Of a stretch of 64,000 nucleotides of DNA, positions 16,997 through 37,705 are shown one piece after another. Source of the stretch: an uncultured Candidatus Saccharibacteria bacterium (GTDB lineage: Bacteria; Patescibacteriota; Saccharimonadia; Saccharimonadales; AWTP1-31); assembly GCA_964409615.1 (NCBI GenBank), contig CAYPDT010000001.1, positions 243,880 to 307,879 of the forward strand, in the 5' to 3' direction. The position numbers were made by a program, and so were the translations under genes. The notes under the pieces were generated by a model that saw nothing but the letters and a program-made list of their open reading frames with translations, was not told the DNA's origin and did no database searches. Position 1 is the first letter of the stretch. Every line of letters begins with the position of its first letter.

Positions 16997-19195
16997 TTAG
17001 TTCTTTGATGCCAGCAATTTAGCCTTTGGGAAGGTAAAACCAAAGGTGCTACCTTTGCCCTCTTCGCTCTTGAAAATAATTGCCCCACCCTGGGCAATAA
17101 TGACTTTTTTAGCCATGAACAACCCTAGTCCGGTACCATCTGGGCGAGCTTTCTTGGCATTACCTGCCCGGAAGAACTTGGTGAACAGATGGTGCTGCTC
17201 GGCTTTCGGAACACCCAGACCATCGTCAACTACGGTATATTCAATAGAATCACCCTTATCTTCTAGATTAAGCTGTATATGCCCCCCTGCCGGGGTGTAA
17301 TGCAAGGCGTTATCGGCGAAGTTCATAATTACCTGGCGAATCTTAGTTTCGTCGAGCATTAATTCGGGGAAGTTCTCTGGCTTAGTAAAGGTGAGGGTCT
17401 GATTTTTACTCTTAGCCACCTCTGTTAACTGCTCCATTTCAGATGACACCACCTCTGTTAGCTGCGTTGGCTTGTTCTCTATTACAAACTTACCACTACG
17501 CAAGCGAGAGACGTTTAACAGGTCGGCAATCAGATAAACCATACGCTGCGAGCTAGCAAAAGCCTGGTTTAGCAGTTCTTGCTGCTGCTTGGTTAGCTTG
17601 CCAGCGTCGCCCTCTACAACCATACTCACATAGCCTTTCACCGCTGTTAATGGTGTCCGTAGCTGATGAGAAGCCATACTAATAAACTCGTCTTTAGTTT
17701 CGTCTAGTGCCTTTAGTTTCTCATTGGTCTGACGTAACTGACGAGTAGCATCATCGACTTTTTGTTGCAGGGTGATGTTAAATGTCTCAATCTCTTCGAA
17801 ACGAAGAGCGTTTTGGATAGCAATCACCAGCTCATTCGCAATAATATCCAACACCTGTAAGTCTTGTTTGTTATAGGCATTTCCACTCTGTTTTGCGCCC
17901 ATAAGCATGTAGCCGATTTCTTGCGATGACTTGTCGGCGAGAGCCAATTTAGATGCAATAGCCACCCCACTCTGGTTGAGTGTAGTCTTGAGAGCAGCCT
18001 GATTTTCCTCTAGCTCATCCGTTACTACGATGGTCGTCTTGCCTTTAATACGCTCACCAATAGATAGAATGCCATCCTCATCGATATCTCGCTTGCGCGA
18101 GAGTACAACACGTCTAGCTGTATTTTCGGTTTTTCTGATGATAAAACCAGAGTATTCGGCCTTCAGGGTGCTACTTATCAGGTCTGCTGACTGCTTGAGC
18201 AATATGTCGAGGTTAATATTACCCACCAGCATCTTATTAAGCTTATCCAGCAGGTCCTGAGCATCATATGCATCCCTATAGAACAATCTGTTAGTAATAC
18301 GGTCAAAGAAGCGCTTGAGCGGTGCAAGACTGAAACCAAAAATAAGGGTGGCAAGTATATACAATGCTTGCTGTAAACCAGTTAAGTTACCGGAGCCAAA
18401 CACGTTGCTCGACAGTCCAAAAATGGCTAATACATATGCCCCTACAAGAGTAGTTAAGGTTAAGATGTAGCCCACAGATCGAGCAACAATTAGGCGGATA
18501 TCAAACAACCCCTGTTTTAATAGTGAATACACCGTTAAAGAGATGAAGTATATCGGTGCCATGTAGCCAACAACATATAACGCAGTCTGATCACCCAGTA
18601 TTTGGGGCAATAGCACTATAAATACAGTGGCATGCACAATAGTAAGTGTTAGCCCACTCAAAAGAGTTACTGTTTGTCGACGAAGTGCGACATCCTTACT
18701 CCTGCGGATAATTTCGATGTCATTGAAGTAAACACTGACCAGCACTAAGATTACAAAAACTCCAATTATCGCAGCTAACGGGCCAGGACTGTAAACAAAC
18801 TTATCACTCTTAATAATGAATTCACCGGCCACAATTTTATAGGGCGATAGAATTGCGCTTATAGCGCCAAAGCCCACAATAGACTTCTGTACAGTTGTCA
18901 TCCTCTTTTTCTCTGGGTAATACAGAGTAAATAAATAAATTTCTAGTAATACTAGGCTCCCCAGAAAATATCCGAGCCTGTTTAATACTCCGAAGAGAGT
19001 CGCGTACGAAACATTGGCATTGTCTACAAATGCAAGTGCGCCGTTAACAATTGTCCAGGTAAGTGTAGAAAGCGTAACAACGGCGAATAGTCGTTGATCA
19101 ATCCTACGAGTCGCTCTACCTTCAAGGAATAGCAATAGCCCTACTGCCAGCTGGCAGACAGCCACAATACCTAGCAGAGCAATTGCAAACTTCAT
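16997..19195 (-). CDS. Sensor histidine kinase with multi-TM N-terminal domain
   Basis: About 8 N-terminal TM helices. H-box SMASHQLRTPLT, N-box NFADNALHYTP, G1 DDGLGVP, G2 GTGLGLFMAKKV. Confidence 0.85.
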   Translation of the reverse strand: MKFAIALLGIVAVCQLAVGLLLFLEGRATRRIDQRLFAVVTLSTLTWTIVNGALAFVDNANVSYATLFGVLNRLGYFLGSLVLLEIYLFTLYYPEKKRMTTVQKSIVGFGAISAILSPYKIVAGEFIIKSDKFVYSPGPLAAIIGVFVILVLVSVYFNDIEIIRRSKDVALRRQTVTLLSGLTLTIVHATVFIVLLPQILGDQTALYVVGYMAPIYFISLTVYSLLKQGLFDIRLIVARSVGYILTLTTLVGAYVLAIFGLSSNVFGSGNLTGLQQALYILATLIFGFSLAPLKRFFDRITNRLFYRDAYDAQDLLDKLNKMLVGNINLDILLKQSADLISSTLKAEYSGFIIRKTENTARRVVLSRKRDIDEDGILSIGERIKGKTTIVVTDELEENQAALKTTLNQSGVAIASKLALADKSSQEIGYMLMGAKQSGNAYNKQDLQVLDIIANELVIAIQNALRFEEIETFNITLQQKVDDATRQLRQTNEKLKALDETKDEFISMASHQLRTPLTAVKGYVSMVVEGDAGKLTKQQQELLNQAFASSQRMVYLIADLLNVSRLRSGKFVIENKPTQLTEVVSSEMEQLTEVAKSKNQTLTFTKPENFPELMLDETKIRQVIMNFADNALHYTPAGGHIQLNLEDKGDSIEYTVVDDGLGVPKAEQHHLFTKFFRAGNAKKARPDGTGLGLFMAKKVIIAQGGAIIFKSEEGKGSTFGFTFPKAKLLASKN

Positions 19196-19260: not shown

Positions 19261-20091
19261 TTACAGATGAACTTCTGGAGCACCAAAGACGGCTAGGTCT
19301 CTAAAGATAGCCAAGTTGTGCGCATTGCTTGGAATAGCTACAGGAGCGTACTTATCGTCAAATTGTACTTCACCAACTGTAGGTGTCTTCAAACCAGGTA
19401 CGCCAGCAATATCTTCGTATTCAACACCAAGCCCACCGAGTGACTTGATAGCAGGTGTGTTAAGGTGAGCAAAAATCATCAATTCACCTTCATCTAGCTG
19501 ACCACGTTCTACGTGATTGAATAATGCAAGATAACCTACATCAGATATTCGTAAACCATTATAAGGTTCTGTCTCTTTGATACGGAAGTTGGTTTCGACA
19601 CTGATACTTCGCTCAAGTCGTGTGCCATTTTTTGCATAAAAGTCAGCAAATTGTGCACCGTCAAGACCTTGGCCTGACAGTACAATATCATCGATAAATG
19701 GCATGCCAGTCAACTGAACTTGCTCACCATTAACATCGGTTGCCATCTCGGTTGAACCGCCTTCTGATCGCCCTGAGAATCTGAAAGCATGAACTAATTC
19801 TTGCCTGCCATCTCGCATATCAGCAATTGCAAGGAAGAGGCAAAGGCCTTCGTAACTAGCAACAATTTCGGGTATTTCAGGGAACTTCTTGGCTTCTTCA
19901 TTCTTGACTAAGTCAACATGAGGACTATCAGGACTTAACCATACAGAATAAAGGTCGCCTTGGTCACCCTGAGATTCACGGATAGCATCAAAGAACTGAG
20001 CTTCTCGTTCTACAACTTGTTCAGGGGTTAAATGATAAGGGTCGAATCCTGGTGTCATACCATCGCTTGGTCGCACATCAACTAAACTCAT
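19261..20091 (-). CDS. Hypothetical protein, co-operonic with pdaD
   Basis: 276-aa ORF starting 3 nt after the pdaD stop. I recognised no motif. Confidence 0.5.
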   Translation of the reverse strand: MSLVDVRPSDGMTPGFDPYHLTPEQVVEREAQFFDAIRESQGDQGDLYSVWLSPDSPHVDLVKNEEAKKFPEIPEIVASYEGLCLFLAIADMRDGRQELVHAFRFSGRSEGGSTEMATDVNGEQVQLTGMPFIDDIVLSGQGLDGAQFADFYAKNGTRLERSISVETNFRIKETEPYNGLRISDVGYLALFNHVERGQLDEGELMIFAHLNTPAIKSLGGLGVEYEDIAGVPGLKTPTVGEVQFDDKYAPVAIPSNAHNLAIFRDLAVFGAPEVHL

Positions 20092-20094
20092 GAT

Positions 20095-20610
20095 TTACTC
20101 CTTGTCTCCTTCCAGTAAAACTGGCTTATTTTCCCAATCGCTCGCCTGGTAAACTGCAACTGCAAAAGCACAAATTGGCTTGTCTTTACAGACACCACCA
20201 ACAACGGTCATGTTGATTTTGCCAAAGTCTACACCACGGGTTTTCATTAGGTCTTTGAGGCTATTTTCGATATCTTGGCGAACTTGCTGCTCGCTATTAC
20301 CTTCGTGTTCTACAAACAGACCTTTGCCGTCAGTTTCGTCTTGCACCCAGCCAATTCCAGCCCAGGCTTCTTCGTTGTGGGTACTGGTACGCTGTTCGGC
20401 ATACACTACATATAGTCGGTCTCCCCAGCCACCAATAGTGTTCTGGATAGGCCCGTCCACGCACTCAACCTGGGTGTTTGGGGGGATAACTGAACTTAAT
20501 CGAATAAGATTACGGTCGCAAACACCGGTTGCATATAACGCGGCATCAAACGCACCGAGCTGTGTTGTACCTTCTTTTACTGCCGTCGAAACCTGAATTT
20601 TCATAATCAC
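20095..20610 (-). CDS. pdaD: Pyruvoyl-dependent arginine decarboxylase
   Basis: About 170 aa with the self-cleavage Ser-Ser context NLIRLSSVIPP. Length and overall pattern match the PdaD family. Confidence 0.75.
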   Translation of the reverse strand: MIMKIQVSTAVKEGTTQLGAFDAALYATGVCDRNLIRLSSVIPPNTQVECVDGPIQNTIGGWGDRLYVVYAEQRTSTHNEEAWAGIGWVQDETDGKGLFVEHEGNSEQQVRQDIENSLKDLMKTRGVDFGKINMTVVGGVCKDKPICAFAVAVYQASDWENKPVLLEGDKE

Positions 20611-20623
20611 TTTCCGTGGGTAT

Positions 20624-20670
20624 TAAAAAAACGGCACGCGGACAGACGAAGTTGTCTGTTCACGTACCGT
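20624..20670 (-). terminator. Intrinsic terminator-like hairpin plus U7 inside the pdaD leader (attenuator candidate)
   Basis: On the minus strand, ACGGTACGTGAACAGAC-AACTTC-GTCTGTCCGCGTGCCGT (17-bp stem, 2 mismatches) is followed by TTTTTTT. The pdaD ATG lies 14 nt downstream of the T-run. Confidence 0.55.
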
Positions 20671-20700
20671 TTAATCTTGCAAAGTTCTAAACTATATTGC

Positions 20701-20729
20701 ATTATACGGTACCACAAGGGTTTTGTCAA
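20701..20729 (-). promoter_or_regulatory. Consensus sigma70 promoter TTGACA-N17-TATAAT
   Basis: Minus strand: TTGACA (20724-20729), a 17-nt spacer, TATAAT (20701-20706). It sits between the upstream gene stop (20740) and the leader hairpin. Confidence 0.65.
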
Positions 20730-20739
20730 CACAATTTAA

Positions 20740-21624
20740 CTATATTTTAAGGGCTTCTTCTTGTTCTTCATTGGCCCGATTAACTTTACGCTTACCCCAA
20801 TTATAGACTGCCGGGATACTTGCCACACCAAGGATTGCCCCTCCAACTGTTTGTAAACTTGGGCTTTCTATTCCTTGATCAAGCAACCACCCCTGCACGG
20901 CACAAACACCAGCCAACGCTGCAGAGGTTTTAAGCCCGTATTCGGCATTCTCGCGGAACGTGCGCTCCTCTGTTGCCTCTCTATCTCTTATAAACACTGA
21001 TACTGCAGTGCCGCCAAGGAAAGCTGCAGCGGCCTTTATGCCGCCATTAACTTTTGCACCTTCGTGTAGCCCAACTTTGTTCAAGCCCTTATTTAGCAGA
21101 GCCCGAGAACGTTTTGCACCGCCACGTGATAACACGTCAGCTGTTGCCAAGCCTGCTAGCCCTTCAATAATAAAGGTAGCTGCACCATATATAGCACCAA
21201 CAAGTGCAGATTTGCCATCTAGTGCTGTTGCCGCCATGCCTAGCACGGCAAACCTCAGCGCTTCGTTAAATGGTGTGACCTCAAGGCCGATAATTCCTGC
21301 TTCTGAACCGCTACGAGTCGCGGATAGAACTCGCCGACCTATTCTTCGCCAGCGTGATACTTCTTGTTGTGTATCTGCTTCTATGGCAGCCGGGGCTTCG
21401 ATACTAAACAGTGGTGATGTTGCTACATCTATCGATTCGATATTTTGCTCACTTGGCAGACCGTGTAGCAAAGGACCTTCGTAAAAGCCATTCTCATTTA
21501 CAAGAGCTGAGTTACTATTTTCAACCAAATCTTGACCAACCAAGAAACGTGCTACAGCGCTATACTCTGTCTCGTTGAGGGGTGGTTGTATAATGTTTGG
21601 ACTAATGGCTGATAATTCTGTCAT
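20740..21624 (-). CDS. Hypothetical membrane protein (Gly/Ala-rich TM helices)
   Basis: Long ORF with a soluble N-terminal third followed by several G/A-rich hydrophobic segments. Confidence 0.5.
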   Translation of the reverse strand: MTELSAISPNIIQPPLNETEYSAVARFLVGQDLVENSNSALVNENGFYEGPLLHGLPSEQNIESIDVATSPLFSIEAPAAIEADTQQEVSRWRRIGRRVLSATRSGSEAGIIGLEVTPFNEALRFAVLGMAATALDGKSALVGAIYGAATFIIEGLAGLATADVLSRGGAKRSRALLNKGLNKVGLHEGAKVNGGIKAAAAFLGGTAVSVFIRDREATEERTFRENAEYGLKTSAALAGVCAVQGWLLDQGIESPSLQTVGGAILGVASIPAVYNWGKRKVNRANEEQEEALKI

Positions 21625-21764: not shown

Positions 21765-22139
21765 ATGATAACCATCGCCGTCGTAGAAGACGACCATCCA
21801 ATCGCCCAGATGTATCAGTTCAAGTTAGAGTCGGCGGGCTTTAAAACAGCCGTTGCCCACGATGGTGAACAGGGCTTGAAGGTCATCGAAGAAGTACGAC
21901 CTGATTTAATCTTGCTCGACCTGCGCATGCCTGTCATGACTGGCGACGAAATGCTGGAAAAGCTACGACAAACAGAATGGGGTAGTAGTATTCGAGTAAT
22001 TATCCTGACCAACATTAGCAAAAATGAGGCACCGCACGGTCTGCGATTCTTGAATGTAGACCGCTACGTAGTAAAGGCGCATCACACGCCACAACAGGTT
22101 GTGGATATCATAAAAGAAGTGCTTCGACTACCACGTTAG
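21765..22139 (+). CDS. Single-domain response regulator (receiver only), copy 1
   Basis: CheY-like: acidic pair EDD, phospho-acceptor LLDLRMP, conserved T (ILTN) and K (VVKAHHTP). No output domain. Confidence 0.85.
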   Translation: MITIAVVEDDHPIAQMYQFKLESAGFKTAVAHDGEQGLKVIEEVRPDLILLDLRMPVMTGDEMLEKLRQTEWGSSIRVIILTNISKNEAPHGLRFLNVDRYVVKAHHTPQQVVDIIKEVLRLPR

Positions 22140-22203
22140 CATTGTGAAACTCACAGCATAAACAATTTGAAATGGTTGCTGAAAGTGCGTAGACTTAATC
22201 CTT

Positions 22204-22608
22204 GTGCGCAAAAAAATAACCATCATCGAAGACGACAAATCTATAGCAAAAATGTACCAGTTCAAGCTGGAAAATGAGGGCTTTGATATCGAAGTTGCCC
22301 ACTCCGGACCAGCCGGATTGCATCTGGTACGCAATACTCGCCCCAACCTCATATTACTCGACTTGCGACTACCACATATGAACGGCGATGAAGTACTGCA
22401 CCACATCCGCCAGCATGAATGGGGCAAGGCCATTAAGGTGATGATTATGGCAAATGTCAGCCGAGTACATGCTCCTAAACGACTAGAGACGCTGGAGTTC
22501 GATAAATATCTGATTAAAGCTCACCATACACCTGGGCAAGTAGCCGACATTATTAACGACTTGCTCAGCCAACCTTCAGCTTCGCATAGTAGTTACTACA
22601 GTAAGTAG
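22204..22608 (+). CDS. Single-domain response regulator (receiver only), copy 2
   Basis: GTG start. Contains IIEDD, LLDLRLP and LIKAHHTP. Paralog of copy 1 with a short S-rich tail. Confidence 0.85.
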   Translation: MRKKITIIEDDKSIAKMYQFKLENEGFDIEVAHSGPAGLHLVRNTRPNLILLDLRLPHMNGDEVLHHIRQHEWGKAIKVMIMANVSRVHAPKRLETLEFDKYLIKAHHTPGQVADIINDLLSQPSASHSSYYSK

Positions 22609-22668
22609 CTAAACAAAGATACCGGTACTGTATTGTGTTTACGCCTAACTTACACTACTATTCTTTAT

Positions 22669-23043
22669 ATGGCGGCAGTAAAAGTTGCAATCATCGAAGA
22701 CGACCAGGCCATCAGCCAGATGTATCGCATCAAGTTCCAGGCTGAAGGTTTTGACGTAGATACAGCCGAGAACGGCAAGCTGGGTCTTGAGCTGTGTGAA
22801 AAAATGCGTCCCGACATCATCTTGCTCGACCTCATGATGCCCGAGATGACTGGCGACCAGATGTTACTTGAACTGCGTAAAACTACTTGGGGTGCAAAGA
22901 CCAAGGTAGTTATTCTTACTAATATGGGTGAGCAAGAAATTCCTGAATCAGTCAAAAACCAAGGTGTTAGTGCCGTTATTCTAAAAGCCGACATGACCCC
23001 TCGTCAGGTCGCCGAACTCGTCAAGAAAACAATTGATAGCTAA
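22669..23043 (+). CDS. Single-domain response regulator (receiver only), copy 3
   Basis: Start placed at MAAVKVAIIEDD. Contains LLDLMMP, ILTN and ILKADMTP. Confidence 0.85.
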   Translation: MAAVKVAIIEDDQAISQMYRIKFQAEGFDVDTAENGKLGLELCEKMRPDIILLDLMMPEMTGDQMLLELRKTTWGAKTKVVILTNMGEQEIPESVKNQGVSAVILKADMTPRQVAELVKKTIDS

Positions 23044-23084: not shown

Positions 23085-24416
23085 ATGAGAATTGCTGTTA
23101 TAGGCTATGGCAAACAGGGCCAGGCCGCTGTCGAATATTGGGGTAAAGATAATGATGTTACGGTCTGTGATCAGAACGAACATCTTGAATTACCCGATGG
23201 CGTTGAAGCCCAGCTAGGGCCCGGCTATTTGGACGACCTCGACCGTTTTCATCTGATAGTCCGCTCCCCTGTTATACACCCTCGAGACATTGCCGAAGCT
23301 AACGGTGAACGCATTCTGAAAAAGGTTACCACTGTCACCGAAGAGTTTTTCCGTGTCTGCCCTGCCAACATTATCGGAGTAACTGGTACTAAAGGTAAAG
23401 GAACCACCTCTTCACTCATCGCTAAAATACTAGAAGCCGGCGGGCACCGCGTTCACTTGGGTGGCAACATCGGCATTGCGCCACTTGAAATGCTGAAGTG
23501 GAATATTAAACCCACCGATTGGGTTGTATTGGAGTTGGCGAACTTCCAGCTGATCGACCTCGGTGTATCACCAACCATTGCCGTCTGCTTAATGGTCGCG
23601 CCTGAACACTTGGACTGGCATAAAGACATGGCCGAATACGTTGGCTCTAAACAGAATTTATTCCGTCACCAAGGGCCAGATGACCTGACAATCTTTAATC
23701 GTCTGAGCGATTTTTCGGGTGAAGTTGCCGAAGTATCTCCTGCCCTCAAGATTTCCTACGAAGTACCGCCGTTACACCAAGAACCCGAAGAGAAAAATGG
23801 CGCCTATGTGCTTGGTGATGATATCTATATGGATGATGAGCGAGTTTGTGGAGTTAGTGAAGTTAATCTGCTGGGTCGGCACAACCTCGAAAATGTCTGT
23901 GCCGCTATTGCCGCTACCTGGGAACTAATCGACCACAATCCTAAAGCTGTTTCTAAAGCTCTTAGTACGTTTGTCGGGTTACCACACCGGCTTGAATTTG
24001 TTCGTGAACTCGATGGAATAAAGTACTATAACGATTCATTTGCTGCCACACCCCAGGCATCTGTGGCAGCTATGCACGCCATACCTGGCCCCAAAGTTGT
24101 CATTGCCGGCGGCTACGACAGAGGTCTTGACCTTTCGGTATTTGCCGAAGGCGCTACAAGCCCCGATGCACAGGTGCAACACATGCTCCTCATCGGTCAA
24201 ACCGCTCCCAAGATTGCCGAAGCGCTTACTAAAGCCAATTTTAGTGCATTTACCATCTTAGGTGCTACTGACATGAAAACCATTATTAACACTGCTCGAG
24301 AGACCGCCTCTTCTGGCCAAGCAGTGGTACTGTCTCCTGGCTGTGCTAGTTTTGATATGTTCAAGAACTTCGAAGACCGCGGCTTGCAATTCAAGGCCGG
24401 AGTTGACGCATTATGA
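23085..24416 (+). CDS. murD: UDP-N-acetylmuramoyl-L-alanine--glutamate ligase (MurD family)
   Basis: Mur ligase ATP site GVTGTKGKGTT, an N-terminal Rossmann-like MRIAVIGYGKQG, and a C-terminal HRLE motif (LPHRLEFV). Confidence 0.85.
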   Translation: MRIAVIGYGKQGQAAVEYWGKDNDVTVCDQNEHLELPDGVEAQLGPGYLDDLDRFHLIVRSPVIHPRDIAEANGERILKKVTTVTEEFFRVCPANIIGVTGTKGKGTTSSLIAKILEAGGHRVHLGGNIGIAPLEMLKWNIKPTDWVVLELANFQLIDLGVSPTIAVCLMVAPEHLDWHKDMAEYVGSKQNLFRHQGPDDLTIFNRLSDFSGEVAEVSPALKISYEVPPLHQEPEEKNGAYVLGDDIYMDDERVCGVSEVNLLGRHNLENVCAAIAATWELIDHNPKAVSKALSTFVGLPHRLEFVRELDGIKYYNDSFAATPQASVAAMHAIPGPKVVIAGGYDRGLDLSVFAEGATSPDAQVQHMLLIGQTAPKIAEALTKANFSAFTILGATDMKTIINTARETASSGQAVVLSPGCASFDMFKNFEDRGLQFKAGVDAL

Positions 24417-25711
24417 ACAATGCCCCAACCTACAAAGCCTTTATTTTTAAAGGCTACAATTTCGATGCCACTACTAAAACCTTAAAACTTAGCTATGGTT
24501 TTGATGATGCATATAGCTTCACCGAAGAATACCGCTTCAATTTCGACCTCCGACCGCATGACCAGCAGGTGCTAGACCGAGCCATCCAGTCGCTTTTCTT
24601 TATGGCTGGCGTCTCATACTACAAGGCATTTCCAGTCGAAGCTATCCGTATAGATCAAGGCAAAATCGACCGCAAAGATGCCGACTTCTTTGCCAAAACG
24701 TATCAGCGTGGCCTCGGAGAGTATTACTACATCAACAAGATGAATCCGCGCAGCGAAGTTCCTTTTATTGCCAATACCACCGACCAGCTTGCTATCCATC
24801 ATAACCATGGCACAGGTGCCGTCATCGGCATCGGCGGGGGTAAAGACTCGCTCGTGAGCGCCGAACTACTGCGGAATCGGCCCGACTTTGCAACCTGGAG
24901 CCTTGGCCATCGCAGCCAACTAGAACCCCTGATCAAGCGCATTGGCATGCCTCACTTCTGGGTAGAGCGAACCCTCGACCCCCAAATTATTGGACTCAGT
25001 GCGAAAGGCGCCCTAGGCGGGCACATACCTATTTCGGCAATCTTTGGCTGTGTCGGCAGTATCGTAGCCATATTAAGCGGCCACCGCGATAGCATTGTAT
25101 CCAACGAAAACTCCTCAAACGAGCCAACATTGCACTACGACGGCGTAGCGATAAACCACCAGTATTCTAAGTCATTGGAGTATGAAAAAGACTATCAAGC
25201 TTACCTTGCTCGACATTTTGATGATACTGTTCGATATTACTCATTTTTACGACCCTTTAGTGAAGTAAAAATTGCAGAACTATTTGCCCAGTTAGGCTTC
25301 GAAAAATACAAAGATGTCTTTAGTTCGTGCAACCGTGCCTTCGTGCAGGGCAGCAACCAAATCAGCTGGTGTGGACAATGCAGCAAGTGCGCCTTTACAT
25401 TCTTAGCACTCAGCCCTTTTATCTCTCACACTGAGCTTGAAAAGTTATGGCACAAAAACTTACTACTCGACCCTACTCTAGTTACAACTTACCAGAACCT
25501 TCTTGGCATCAGTGGCGACAAACCCCTGGACTGTGTTGGCGAAATCAAAGAATCACGAGCTGCTATGCAAATAGCCCAAAAAGACTACCCGGGCCTCAGT
25601 TACGAATTCGACATTCCAGCCGACTACAGTTACAAAAACCTAGCCGACCACAGCATGCCACCCGAAATGTATGCCGTACTTACAGACTATCTTGCAAGTA
25701 GTGAAAGCTAA
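24413..25711 (+). CDS. PP-loop-like ATP-binding protein, candidate MurL-type UDP-MurNAc-L-Ala-L-Glu epimerase
   Basis: Its ATG overlaps the murD stop (ATGA). It carries a PP-loop-like motif GIGGGKDSLVSAELL and a Cys cluster SWCGQCSKCAFTF. The ~430-aa size matches the reported MurL. The assignment is inferential. Confidence 0.45.
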   Translation: MNNAPTYKAFIFKGYNFDATTKTLKLSYGFDDAYSFTEEYRFNFDLRPHDQQVLDRAIQSLFFMAGVSYYKAFPVEAIRIDQGKIDRKDADFFAKTYQRGLGEYYYINKMNPRSEVPFIANTTDQLAIHHNHGTGAVIGIGGGKDSLVSAELLRNRPDFATWSLGHRSQLEPLIKRIGMPHFWVERTLDPQIIGLSAKGALGGHIPISAIFGCVGSIVAILSGHRDSIVSNENSSNEPTLHYDGVAINHQYSKSLEYEKDYQAYLARHFDDTVRYYSFLRPFSEVKIAELFAQLGFEKYKDVFSSCNRAFVQGSNQISWCGQCSKCAFTFLALSPFISHTELEKLWHKNLLLDPTLVTTYQNLLGISGDKPLDCVGEIKESRAAMQIAQKDYPGLSYEFDIPADYSYKNLADHSMPPEMYAVLTDYLASSES

Positions 25712-37524: not shown

Positions 37525-37671
37525 TTGACAAACAGCTTTTGGCTATGGATAATAGTCGGAATGCAAAGTATGTACGTAATCTGCAAGCGCAAGAAGACCC
37601 ATTTGGGGCTTGTTTTGCTGTAACGTCAAATTACTACATGCATAACTCGACCCCGAAAGGGGTCGTTTTTT
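37525..37671 (+). promoter_or_regulatory. Promoter plus ~110-nt structured leader plus intrinsic terminator (riboswitch/attenuator or sRNA candidate)
   Basis: TTGACA (37525-37530), 17-nt spacer, GATAAT (37548-37553). Terminator CGACCCC-GAAA-GGGGTCG plus T6 at 37648-37671. The next ATG is at 37706. Confidence 0.5.
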
Positions 37672-37705
37672 ATGCAAACGTTTTAGTACCAAGAAAAGAA
37701 TTATC

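Follow-up and report, generated by a model that had tools for sequence, protein, structure and literature searches.

Antitermination by ANTAR proteins, as represented by EutV/EutW of the Enterococcus eut locus, by AmiR and by NasR, relies in the eut case on a two-component system which is encoded within the locus that it regulates and which counts its own genes among its targets, an arrangement to which the locus described here bears a likeness. To our knowledge, the regulation of genes is almost wholly uncharted in Saccharibacteria and in other bacteria of the Candidate Phyla Radiation, where recognisable transcription factors are few. The subject of the present analysis is a stretch of 64,000 nucleotides (nt) from an uncultured Candidatus Saccharibacteria bacterium (GenBank assembly GCA_964409615.1, contig CAYPDT010000001.1, positions 243,880 to 307,879 of the forward strand), called the window throughout, and in particular the leader of its pdaD-like gene, in which an initial annotation had seen a strong promoter feeding straight into an intrinsic terminator and had proposed a conditional attenuator. 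This leader is one of two copies, in the window, of an undescribed and conserved cis-acting leader module of Saccharibacteria. The observation is real and far from chance, and both the architecture and strong evidence from comparison support the attenuator reading; as to the nature of the module, we give roughly even credence to the view that the module would be a factor-dependent conditional terminator, probably tied to the two-component system of a recurring gene cassette and not to arginine or agmatine.

The elements of the copy lying upstream of the pdaD-like open reading frame (ORF), here module 1, are the following.

20729-20724, minus strand: -35 hexamer TTGACA of module 1, read directly.
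20706-20701, minus strand: -10 hexamer TATAAT of module 1, with a spacer of 17 nt from the -35 hexamer.
20671-20693, minus strand: predicted 5' end of the transcript and single-stranded box, AGUUUAGAACUUUGCAAGAUUAA.
20670-20631, minus strand: terminator hairpin of 40 nt, ACGGUACGUGAACAGAC / loop AACUUC / GUCUGUCCGCGUGCCGU.
20631-20625, minus strand: U7 tract (a run of seven T), the first U of which is paired with the A that opens the stem.

Both direct reading and the fold statistics bear out the promoter TTGACA-N17-TATAAT at 20729-20701 of the minus strand and the hairpin with its U7 that follows: the leader of module 1 folds at -34.2 kcal/mol (z = -5.5), none of 200 shuffles folding equally well, and the hairpin by itself, at -25.3 kcal/mol, is the strongest terminator-like hairpin of the window. 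The 17 stacked positions of the stem comprise 14 Watson-Crick pairs, two G-U pairs and one A.C mismatch, and it is because of this internal mismatch, and of nothing else, that module 1 was missed by a simple terminator scan. The -10 hexamer and the hairpin are 30 nt apart, and A20693 lies 7 nt past the -10, a gap that measures 5-7 nt in 54 of 55 related modules. The part of the box that is aligned by the covariance model described below (20688-20672, AGAACUUUGCAAGAUUA) departs from the family consensus AGUWCWUUAGHAGAWWA by a 5-nt insertion (UUAGA) and by two substitutions (AG to GC), reading AGU-UUAGA-ACUUUGCAAGAUUAA; module 1 thus carries a slightly aberrant member of the family, identical in its closest relative (L001). 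Two details of the initial annotation need correction. The ATG of pdaD, at 20604, is found 20 nt past the U tract and not 14 nt, the latter being the distance to an in-frame GTG at 20610; whichever of the two is the start, the claim that no space is left for a second promoter before pdaD holds. The 8-nt palindrome CTTGCAAG, attributed to the leader, is not there, the leader reading CTTTGCAAG; within the window this octamer occurs only at 25691 and 41185.

A second copy, module 2, spans 21737-21641, about 1 kb upstream of module 1, and heads an ORF of 294 amino acids (aa).

21737-21709, minus strand: promoter of module 2, TTGACA-17-TACAAT (11/12).
21703-21687, minus strand: box of module 2, AGUACUUUAGAAGAUUA, beginning 5 nt past the -10.
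21684-21645, minus strand: hairpin of module 2, -22.7 kcal/mol.
21644-21641, minus strand: U4 of module 2, ending 16 nt ahead of the ATG at 21624.

The proposed architecture, in which a strong promoter runs into an intrinsic terminator and too little space remains for a further promoter, is therefore encountered twice, the U tract and the ATG being separated by 20 nt in module 1 and by 16 nt in module 2. Promoters of this quality are rare in the window: the promoter of module 1 is the sole 12/12 match found by a promoter scan between 15 and 26 kb, and over the whole 64 kb the promoters with a 17-nt spacer and at most one mismatch number three, compared to 0.33 expected, a count reached by none of 100 shuffles; two of these three near-consensus sites are supplied by modules 1 and 2. 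A covariance model for which 14 modules of other genomes, and no sequence of the window, were used recognises exactly two copies in the window, module 1 with 34.4 bits and module 2 with 30.7 bits (expectation values, E, of about 1e-6 and 1e-5), the next match scoring 6.4 bits; the same model returns 46 more matches in 41 of the 80 genome loci presented below and 36 in metagenome loci. Since the scores of this model are dominated by the box, the evidence for the hairpin rests on separate folding controls. The other clean terminators of the window carry no box.

The third near-consensus promoter of the window, TTGACA-17-GATAAT, lies within 37525-37675 of the plus strand. Its leader, of about 90 nt, is structured (fold z = -3.8) and includes GCAAGAAGACC; a clean terminator, CGACCCCGAAAGGGGTCG + T6, comes after it, and some 30 nt separate the end of this terminator from the ATG of a 334-aa ORF without Pfam match. 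Neither the covariance model of the module nor Rfam finds a match in this leader, which may be another leader-terminator element.

The conservation of the module was assessed by comparing the upstream regions of 80 species-level Saccharibacteria pdaD loci, the cassette loci covered being L001-L080 and L201-L266. The comparison of the 80 loci reveals a promoter, a conserved stretch, a hairpin of unrelated sequence and a T run; conservation of the leader upstream of pdaD orthologues, upon which the initial annotation had made its proposal depend, is present in most of them. Taking Saccharibacteria genomes and metagenomes together, 75 non-identical, high-confidence modules with promoter, box, hairpin and U run were collected. 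The association of box and terminator is far from that of arbitrary sequence: a hairpin of -12 kcal/mol or stronger with a T run follows 20 of the 22 exact core matches in Saccharibacteria loci, 26 of 3000 random positions of the same loci, and none of 120 exact matches to the 17-nt box in viral contigs. The covariation analysis of the leader in related genomes, also called for by the initial annotation, shows that the hairpin is kept through compensatory changes and that the box preceding it is conserved in sequence; in an alignment fitted to the model and its structure, which biases the result upwards, 93.9% of the cells of the eight basal pairs are paired, double or compensatory changes are seen in all eight, and the covariation score of the stem is 0.81, shuffles reaching 0.27 and slid controls about 0.1. 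Searches of Rfam (Rfam 15), with the whole window at the gathering threshold and with both leaders at E up to 10, gave nothing relevant, and no description of the element or of the cassette was met with in full-text literature searches.

Across the 75 modules the box follows the consensus already quoted, in which no module departs from G2, U7, U8 and A12 and none has G at position 11. A promoter matching at least nine of the 12 consensus positions is present in 55 of the 75, with an exact TTGACA in 51 of those 55, and most of the remaining 20 have a visible promoter that fails the strict scoring rule. The -10 ends 5-7 nt ahead of position 1 of the box, and the transcript is accordingly predicted to open with the box; the hairpin begins 0-5 nt past the box, whose final A's pair with the U tract. 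The box is fixed in its distance to the hairpin and not to the ribosome-binding site. The hairpins, with a mean of about -20 kcal/mol, are followed by U4-8, and their loops and stems vary freely in sequence, what is conserved being the linear 14-17-nt box, predicted to be unpaired with a probability of 0.7-0.97. A comparison of folds of the modules disclosed no alternative antiterminator structure competing with the terminator; the nascent 5' part folds at -2.1 kcal/mol, compared to -20.2 kcal/mol for the terminator. A same-strand ORF lies downstream of 74 of the 75 modules, at a median distance of 26.5 nt from U tract to start codon, and in 51 of the 74 this distance is 40 nt or less, leaving no room for a promoter. 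In a variant class (L013, L026, L031, L039, L046, L051, L066 and L069) an extra hairpin is inserted between the 5' end and the core AUUAGAAGAC; as this hairpin shifts the box away from the start and not from the terminator, the constant feature of the family is UUAGHAGA just 5' of the terminator. A small hairpin within the box itself was considered and dismissed, no covariation being seen at its positions.

A second promoter or a second module lies between module and ORF in L008, L011, L017, L019, L020, L029, L030, L033, L055 and L244. L017, L029, L030, L234 and L244 contain two full modules one behind the other, both provided with a promoter; in L008, L011, L019, L020, L033 and L055 the module is followed by a separate promoter with an A-rich spacer (TTGACAAAAA...TATAAT) which drives pdaD, the pdaD leader from such a promoter being very short or absent. 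Three loci, L015, L022 and L036, carry a complement of the box just past the U tract, such as UUUUCUUCAGUACU in L015, which would lengthen the terminator stem in the read-through RNA, with z = -3 to -4 in L015 and L022 and about -1.5 in L036; no such complement just past the U tract is seen in the other modules.

The nature of the genes headed by the module was examined with a scan of metagenomes for the pattern of promoter plus box, which is unbiased as to the downstream gene. Of the 66 loci returned, about 36 are true modules, with hairpin and T run, the rest being chance matches, and pdaD is downstream of only nine of these true modules. The other genes headed code for S-adenosylmethionine decarboxylase (AdoMet_dc, PF02675), for LuxI/FeeM-like N-acyl synthases (PF00765, PF21926), for a 508-aa protein binding nicotinamide adenine dinucleotide, for Ala/Gly-rich membrane proteins related to the 294-aa ORF and for proteins of unknown family; in the genome loci L014, L033 and L034 it is the gene of a receiver-only response regulator (RR) that is headed by a module. 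The setting is nearly constant: on one side of the module the genes of an RR1-type and then of an RR3-type regulator read away from it, and on the other side it is followed by the cargo gene and by a histidine kinase gene. At least two (two to four in tandem) divergent receiver-only RRs of RR1 and RR3 type are the constant partner of the operon of pdaD, or other cargo, and kinase, and a divergent receiver-only RR gene is found within 650 nt of 51 of the 74 modules. RR1-type gene and module occur together in 42 loci, a module with only an RR3-type gene in one and an RR1-type gene without module in four, and an RR3-type gene alone, again without module, in 12. Of the five terminator-like hairpins found on the same strand between module and kinase, four belong to additional modules with a box and the remaining one, in L006, is weak; no regulator with an output domain is encoded in the cassette loci. 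In cassettes of the same type pdaD is replaced by a LuxI/FeeM-like synthase (L204, L220, L231, L241, L244 and L252) or by AdoMet_dc (L208, L219, L226 and L228), and these cargo swaps suggest amine- or acyl-derived products, possibly signals.

The window has exactly the same layout, with RR1-3 (21765-23043), the modules, the 294-aa ORF, pdaD, the 276-aa ORF and the kinase (16997-19195).

21765-22139, plus strand: RR1, receiver-only response regulator, divergent from module 2.
22204-22608, plus strand: RR2, receiver-only response regulator, divergent from module 2.
22633-23043, plus strand: RR3, receiver-only response regulator, divergent from module 2.
20740-21624, minus strand: 294-aa Ala/Gly-rich ORF, no Pfam match, headed by module 2.
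20095-20604, minus strand: pdaD-like ORF of the pyruvoyl-dependent decarboxylase family, 169 aa.
19261-20091, minus strand: 276-aa ORF, no Pfam match, its start overlapping the pdaD stop.
16997-19195, minus strand: 732-aa membrane histidine kinase, part of the cassette operon.

The three RRs, of 124-136 aa, match PF00072 only. The label pdaD given by the initial annotation stands at the level of the family, the protein scoring 83.7 bits against Pfam PF01862 (cut-off 22.7), and does not stand at the equivalog level, since it falls below both NCBIfam cut-offs (59.7 against 106.95 for TIGR00286; 28.2 against 207 for NF009064); its L36-S37-S38, the Ser-Ser self-cleavage site, is invariant among 23 homologues, as is, in the homologue alignment, the M1 that corresponds to ATG 20604. 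By its homologues the protein assigns the window to Candidatus Saccharibacteria. Neither the 276-aa nor the 294-aa ORF has a match in Pfam or NCBIfam. The stop codon of the 294-aa ORF is 70 nt 5' of module 1; homologues of this ORF adjoin pdaD in 43 of the 80 loci, and the protein is related (hhalign probability 90%) to a 423-aa Ala/Gly-rich membrane protein that is elsewhere headed by the module. The 276-aa ORF is kept beside pdaD in 15 of the 80 loci; the idea that it might be a LuxI/FeeM-like protein was abandoned, as profile-profile comparison gave no similarity. A promoter-like site of the histidine kinase, GTTACA-16-TATAAT with an upstream TG, is seen at 19232-19205 of the minus strand, and since its -10 is only 9 nt from the ATG, an mRNA starting there would be nearly leaderless. 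Beyond the RR genes, at 23085-25711 of the plus strand, the gene of a MurD-like Mur ligase precedes a 432-aa ORF scoring 326 bits against the MurL model NF041275 (UDP-MurNAc-L-Ala-L-Glu epimerase), under the cut-off of 700 bits; the pair hints at a MurD2/MurL route of D-Glu into peptidoglycan.

The conditional terminator that we favour would operate as follows. A near-consensus promoter of the sigma-70 type would start the transcript at the A of the single-stranded box AGUWCWUUAGHAGAWWA; the intrinsic terminator, a hairpin of about 40 nt and variable sequence followed by U4-8, would come 0-5 nt past the box, and the ribosome-binding site and start codon 10-45 nt further on. By default, most transcripts would end at the U tract, leaving an RNA of 55-75 nt, and the downstream operon, in this locus the 294-aa ORF, the pdaD-like gene, the 276-aa ORF and possibly the histidine kinase, would be made by read-through only. 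Read-through would depend on a trans-acting factor, most likely a protein, which would read the box beside the 5' foot of the hairpin or load there onto RNA polymerase, and which would be controlled by, or be part of, the two-component system of the cassette. Three considerations recommend this scheme. As most downstream genes (the 51 of 74 just mentioned for their short spacing) have no other promoter, read-through must occur, which is what an attenuator requires; with no alternative fold at hand and conservation confined to a linear, unpaired box, any switch would have to be a trans-acting factor that reads this box; and as the module is a fixture of one type of cassette, heading unrelated cargo within it, the factor is proposed to be under, or part of, its two-component system, whose signal is more likely to be the relevant one than arginine, agmatine or guanidine. 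Comparison of sequences shows the anatomy of the module, its conservation, the covariation of its stem, its placement with respect to genes and its linkage to the cassette; where transcription starts, that it terminates, that termination is conditional and which factor acts on it are inferred, as is regulation itself.

More specifically, it may be that a phosphorylated receiver of RR1 type, alone, together with RR3 or through a general elongation factor, drives read-through of the box-marked terminator, a proposal that we put forward tentatively and regard as improbable in this exact form; it would amount to antitermination in which no output domain known to bind RNA, ANTAR included, takes part, the module serving as the transcriptional output site of the cassettes, and this consequence is to be taken with the same low expectation. 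Under such a scheme, and given that LuxI/FeeM-like N-acyl synthases and amine-producing pyruvoyl decarboxylases are among the cargo, the cassettes could be self-inducing circuits for the synthesis and sensing of a signal in ultra-small epibiotic bacteria.

Several observations weigh against the conditional terminator. No candidate RNA-binding or antiterminator protein was found nearby in the cassettes, whose RRs are plain acidic receiver domains with neither ANTAR nor other output domain; for the modules, neither a mutually exclusive antiterminator structure nor a defined factor blocking termination was found. About 30% of the modules have a second promoter or a second complete module before the ORF, and intact modules left as "orphans" in this way fit a stand-alone RNA at least equally well; the class with the extra 5' hairpin indicates that a position of the box at the 5' terminus is not essential. 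The link between RRs and module is confounded by phylogeny, for which the co-occurrence counts given above are not corrected, and chance matches of the exact box in viral DNA reach up to 29 bits with the covariance model.

A rival view holds the module to be the gene of a small RNA (sRNA), in which a constitutive strong promoter would yield an RNA of 55-75 nt whose 5' box serves as a seed or as a site titrating a protein, read-through being secondary or a by-product. The module is indeed a complete transcription unit with promoter and terminator of its own, its 5' stretch is conserved and unpaired and its terminator variable in sequence, as in seed-bearing sRNAs, several copies occur per locus, and intact modules exist ahead of another promoter or of a second full module; we nevertheless consider an sRNA gene, the main rival and a serious one, a minority possibility, because a same-strand ORF follows 74 of 75 modules and the 51 lying within 40 nt of a start without other promoter depend on read-through, and because no complementary site comes to light in the downstream leaders, in the initiation regions of the window or in the module's own locus. 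The box pairs with the downstream translation-initiation region at -5.1 kcal/mol, shuffled boxes at -5.4; among the 64 translation-initiation regions of the window the best value is -11.0 kcal/mol, for an interrupted duplex, compared to -10.9 and -10.5 for unrelated genes; and sites complementary to the box in the module's own locus number 21 against 16.5 expected, which is no enrichment. Rather less probable still is a constitutive partial terminator that merely damps a very strong promoter, the box serving the processing, stability or translation of the read-through mRNA. No regulator was found, the histidine kinase has a promoter-like site of its own, and module 1, placed where it is behind the 294-aa ORF, would also terminate the transcript of that gene, all of which would suit such a terminator; most modules, however, have no co-directional gene upstream, module 2 and 51 of the 74 facing a divergent RR gene, the terminators look efficient (mean -20 kcal/mol, U4-8), the box keeps its spacing to the hairpin and not to the ribosome-binding site, and a 5' stabilising hairpin would have to open the transcript, whereas the one here has 17-20 unpaired nt in front of it.

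The arginine, agmatine, polyamine or guanidine signal envisaged by the initial annotation finds little favour with the data, and these ligands are unlikely: the same element heads unrelated cargo and RR genes. A very small metabolite or ion riboswitch formed by box and hairpin, in which binding of one of them would alter termination, would agree with the presence, among the cargo, of the pyruvoyl decarboxylases of polyamine metabolism (PvlArgDC and AdoMet_dc) and with a promoter-leader-terminator layout which is that of transcriptional riboswitches; yet Rfam yields no matching family, not even with E raised to 10, nothing but the linear 14-17-nt box is conserved while loops and stems vary freely, no competing fold exists, the headed genes are heterogeneous (RRs, LuxI/FeeM-like synthases, membrane proteins) and a dedicated sensor kinase is present within the same cassette, so that we regard it as highly improbable. 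Control by a metabolite specific to pdaD is in particular made unlikely by the lack of a structured aptamer or alternative fold in the leader, and control by translation, the other option of the initial annotation, by the lack of a leader ORF. Just as poorly placed is the idea of a DNA operator, in which a repressor or roadblock would bind the box over the transcription start, the hairpin being unrelated: the box of the main class does occupy +1 to +17, a classic operator position, but in the variant class it lies about 25-40 nt past the start and still 0-8 nt from the terminator, it has neither dyad nor direct-repeat symmetry, box and terminator are tightly coupled, and the regulators nearby lack a DNA-binding domain. 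A few further readings were tried and set aside. A terminator of the upstream gene and nothing more is at odds with the promoter that sits between gene and hairpin, and with the divergent gene that module 2 and most others face; a general trait of the terminators of this genome, with the clean terminators of the window that have no box. A sigma-dependent pause or Q-type element would require the -10-like reading TACTTT, which breaks down in copies carrying U at position 4 as well as in the extra-hairpin class; reiterative transcription of the pyrG type lacks conserved complementarity between transcript start and terminator arm, because the arms vary; and a leader peptide lacks a start codon in the box.

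The module is a concrete putative regulatory unit, a 17-nt box with a terminator, which is conserved across many species and is absent from Rfam and from the literature searched, and it marks a recurring cassette made of a sensor kinase, at least two receiver-only regulators and variable cargo enzymes. Should two-component control of read-through be true, it would show how regulators devoid of an output domain control genes, and it would point to amine- or acyl-based signalling in these epibionts; if the element proves instead to be a family of sRNAs, the searches made point to no earlier one described for the phylum.

When known systems are considered, the modules resemble sibling sRNAs of the Qrr and RybB types in that they have a promoter of their own, begin with 14-17 nt that are conserved and unpaired, end in a terminator hairpin of variable sequence and occur in several copies per genome; they differ from them in being almost always co-oriented with, and immediately upstream of, an ORF devoid of a promoter, and in lacking complementary targets in downstream leaders, in the initiation regions of the window and in their own locus. 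With TRAP/trp and HutP/hut of B. subtilis, and with hairpin melting of the Csp type, the module would share a protein that acts on unstructured leader RNA to decide between termination and read-through, which for the module is a proposal; TRAP and HutP, however, need 6-11 spaced (G/U)AG triplets that overlap the antiterminator or terminator, whereas the module has a single UAG and no overlap. No protein of TRAP or HutP type was identified for the modules, and no cold-shock-domain gene is present in the window or in the collected locus sequences, UCUUU in the box resembling the sequence that cold-shock proteins are taken to prefer.

A strong promoter, a short linear element and a promoter-proximal terminator are also the ingredients of processive systems, such as boxA with NusB/NusE, lambdoid Q (PR'-tR'), RfaH/ops and LoaP, which have in common with the modules, for which it is predicted only, a short and abundant RNA arising from the early terminator. 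The part of the box reading GUUCUUUAG, in about one third of the copies, resembles what is presumably the rrn boxA, GCUCUUUAACAA or UGUUCUUUGAAAA, and the GAAC..UUAG variants of the box resemble what we assume to be the RNA bound by NusA KH domains. With regard to boxA, the invariant part of the module is UUAGHAGA and not CUCUUU, the invariant half thus not being the boxA-like one, and the extra-hairpin class is without the boxA-like half altogether; the TM7 16S leader, sought in the viral collection with the probe GAGAGGATGATCAGCCAG, gave no match. The cassettes differ from the processive systems, in addition, by having no Q, RfaH or LoaP gene, and their operons have no strong internal terminators without box that would call for processivity.

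ANTAR antitermination differs at the level of the components. The RRs of the cassettes consist of PF00072 only and have no ANTAR domain (PF03861), and the element of the module is a linear unpaired box, whereas that of ANTAR systems is made of two tandem hexaloop hairpins overlapping the terminator; recognition of the box could not stabilise an antiterminator structure, because the box lies outside the terminator stem. The likeness is one of organisation: several leader terminators occur per cluster, each preceded by the same conserved RNA element. The ANTAR antitermination of the eut locus is the known system closest in logic to the Saccharibacteria module.

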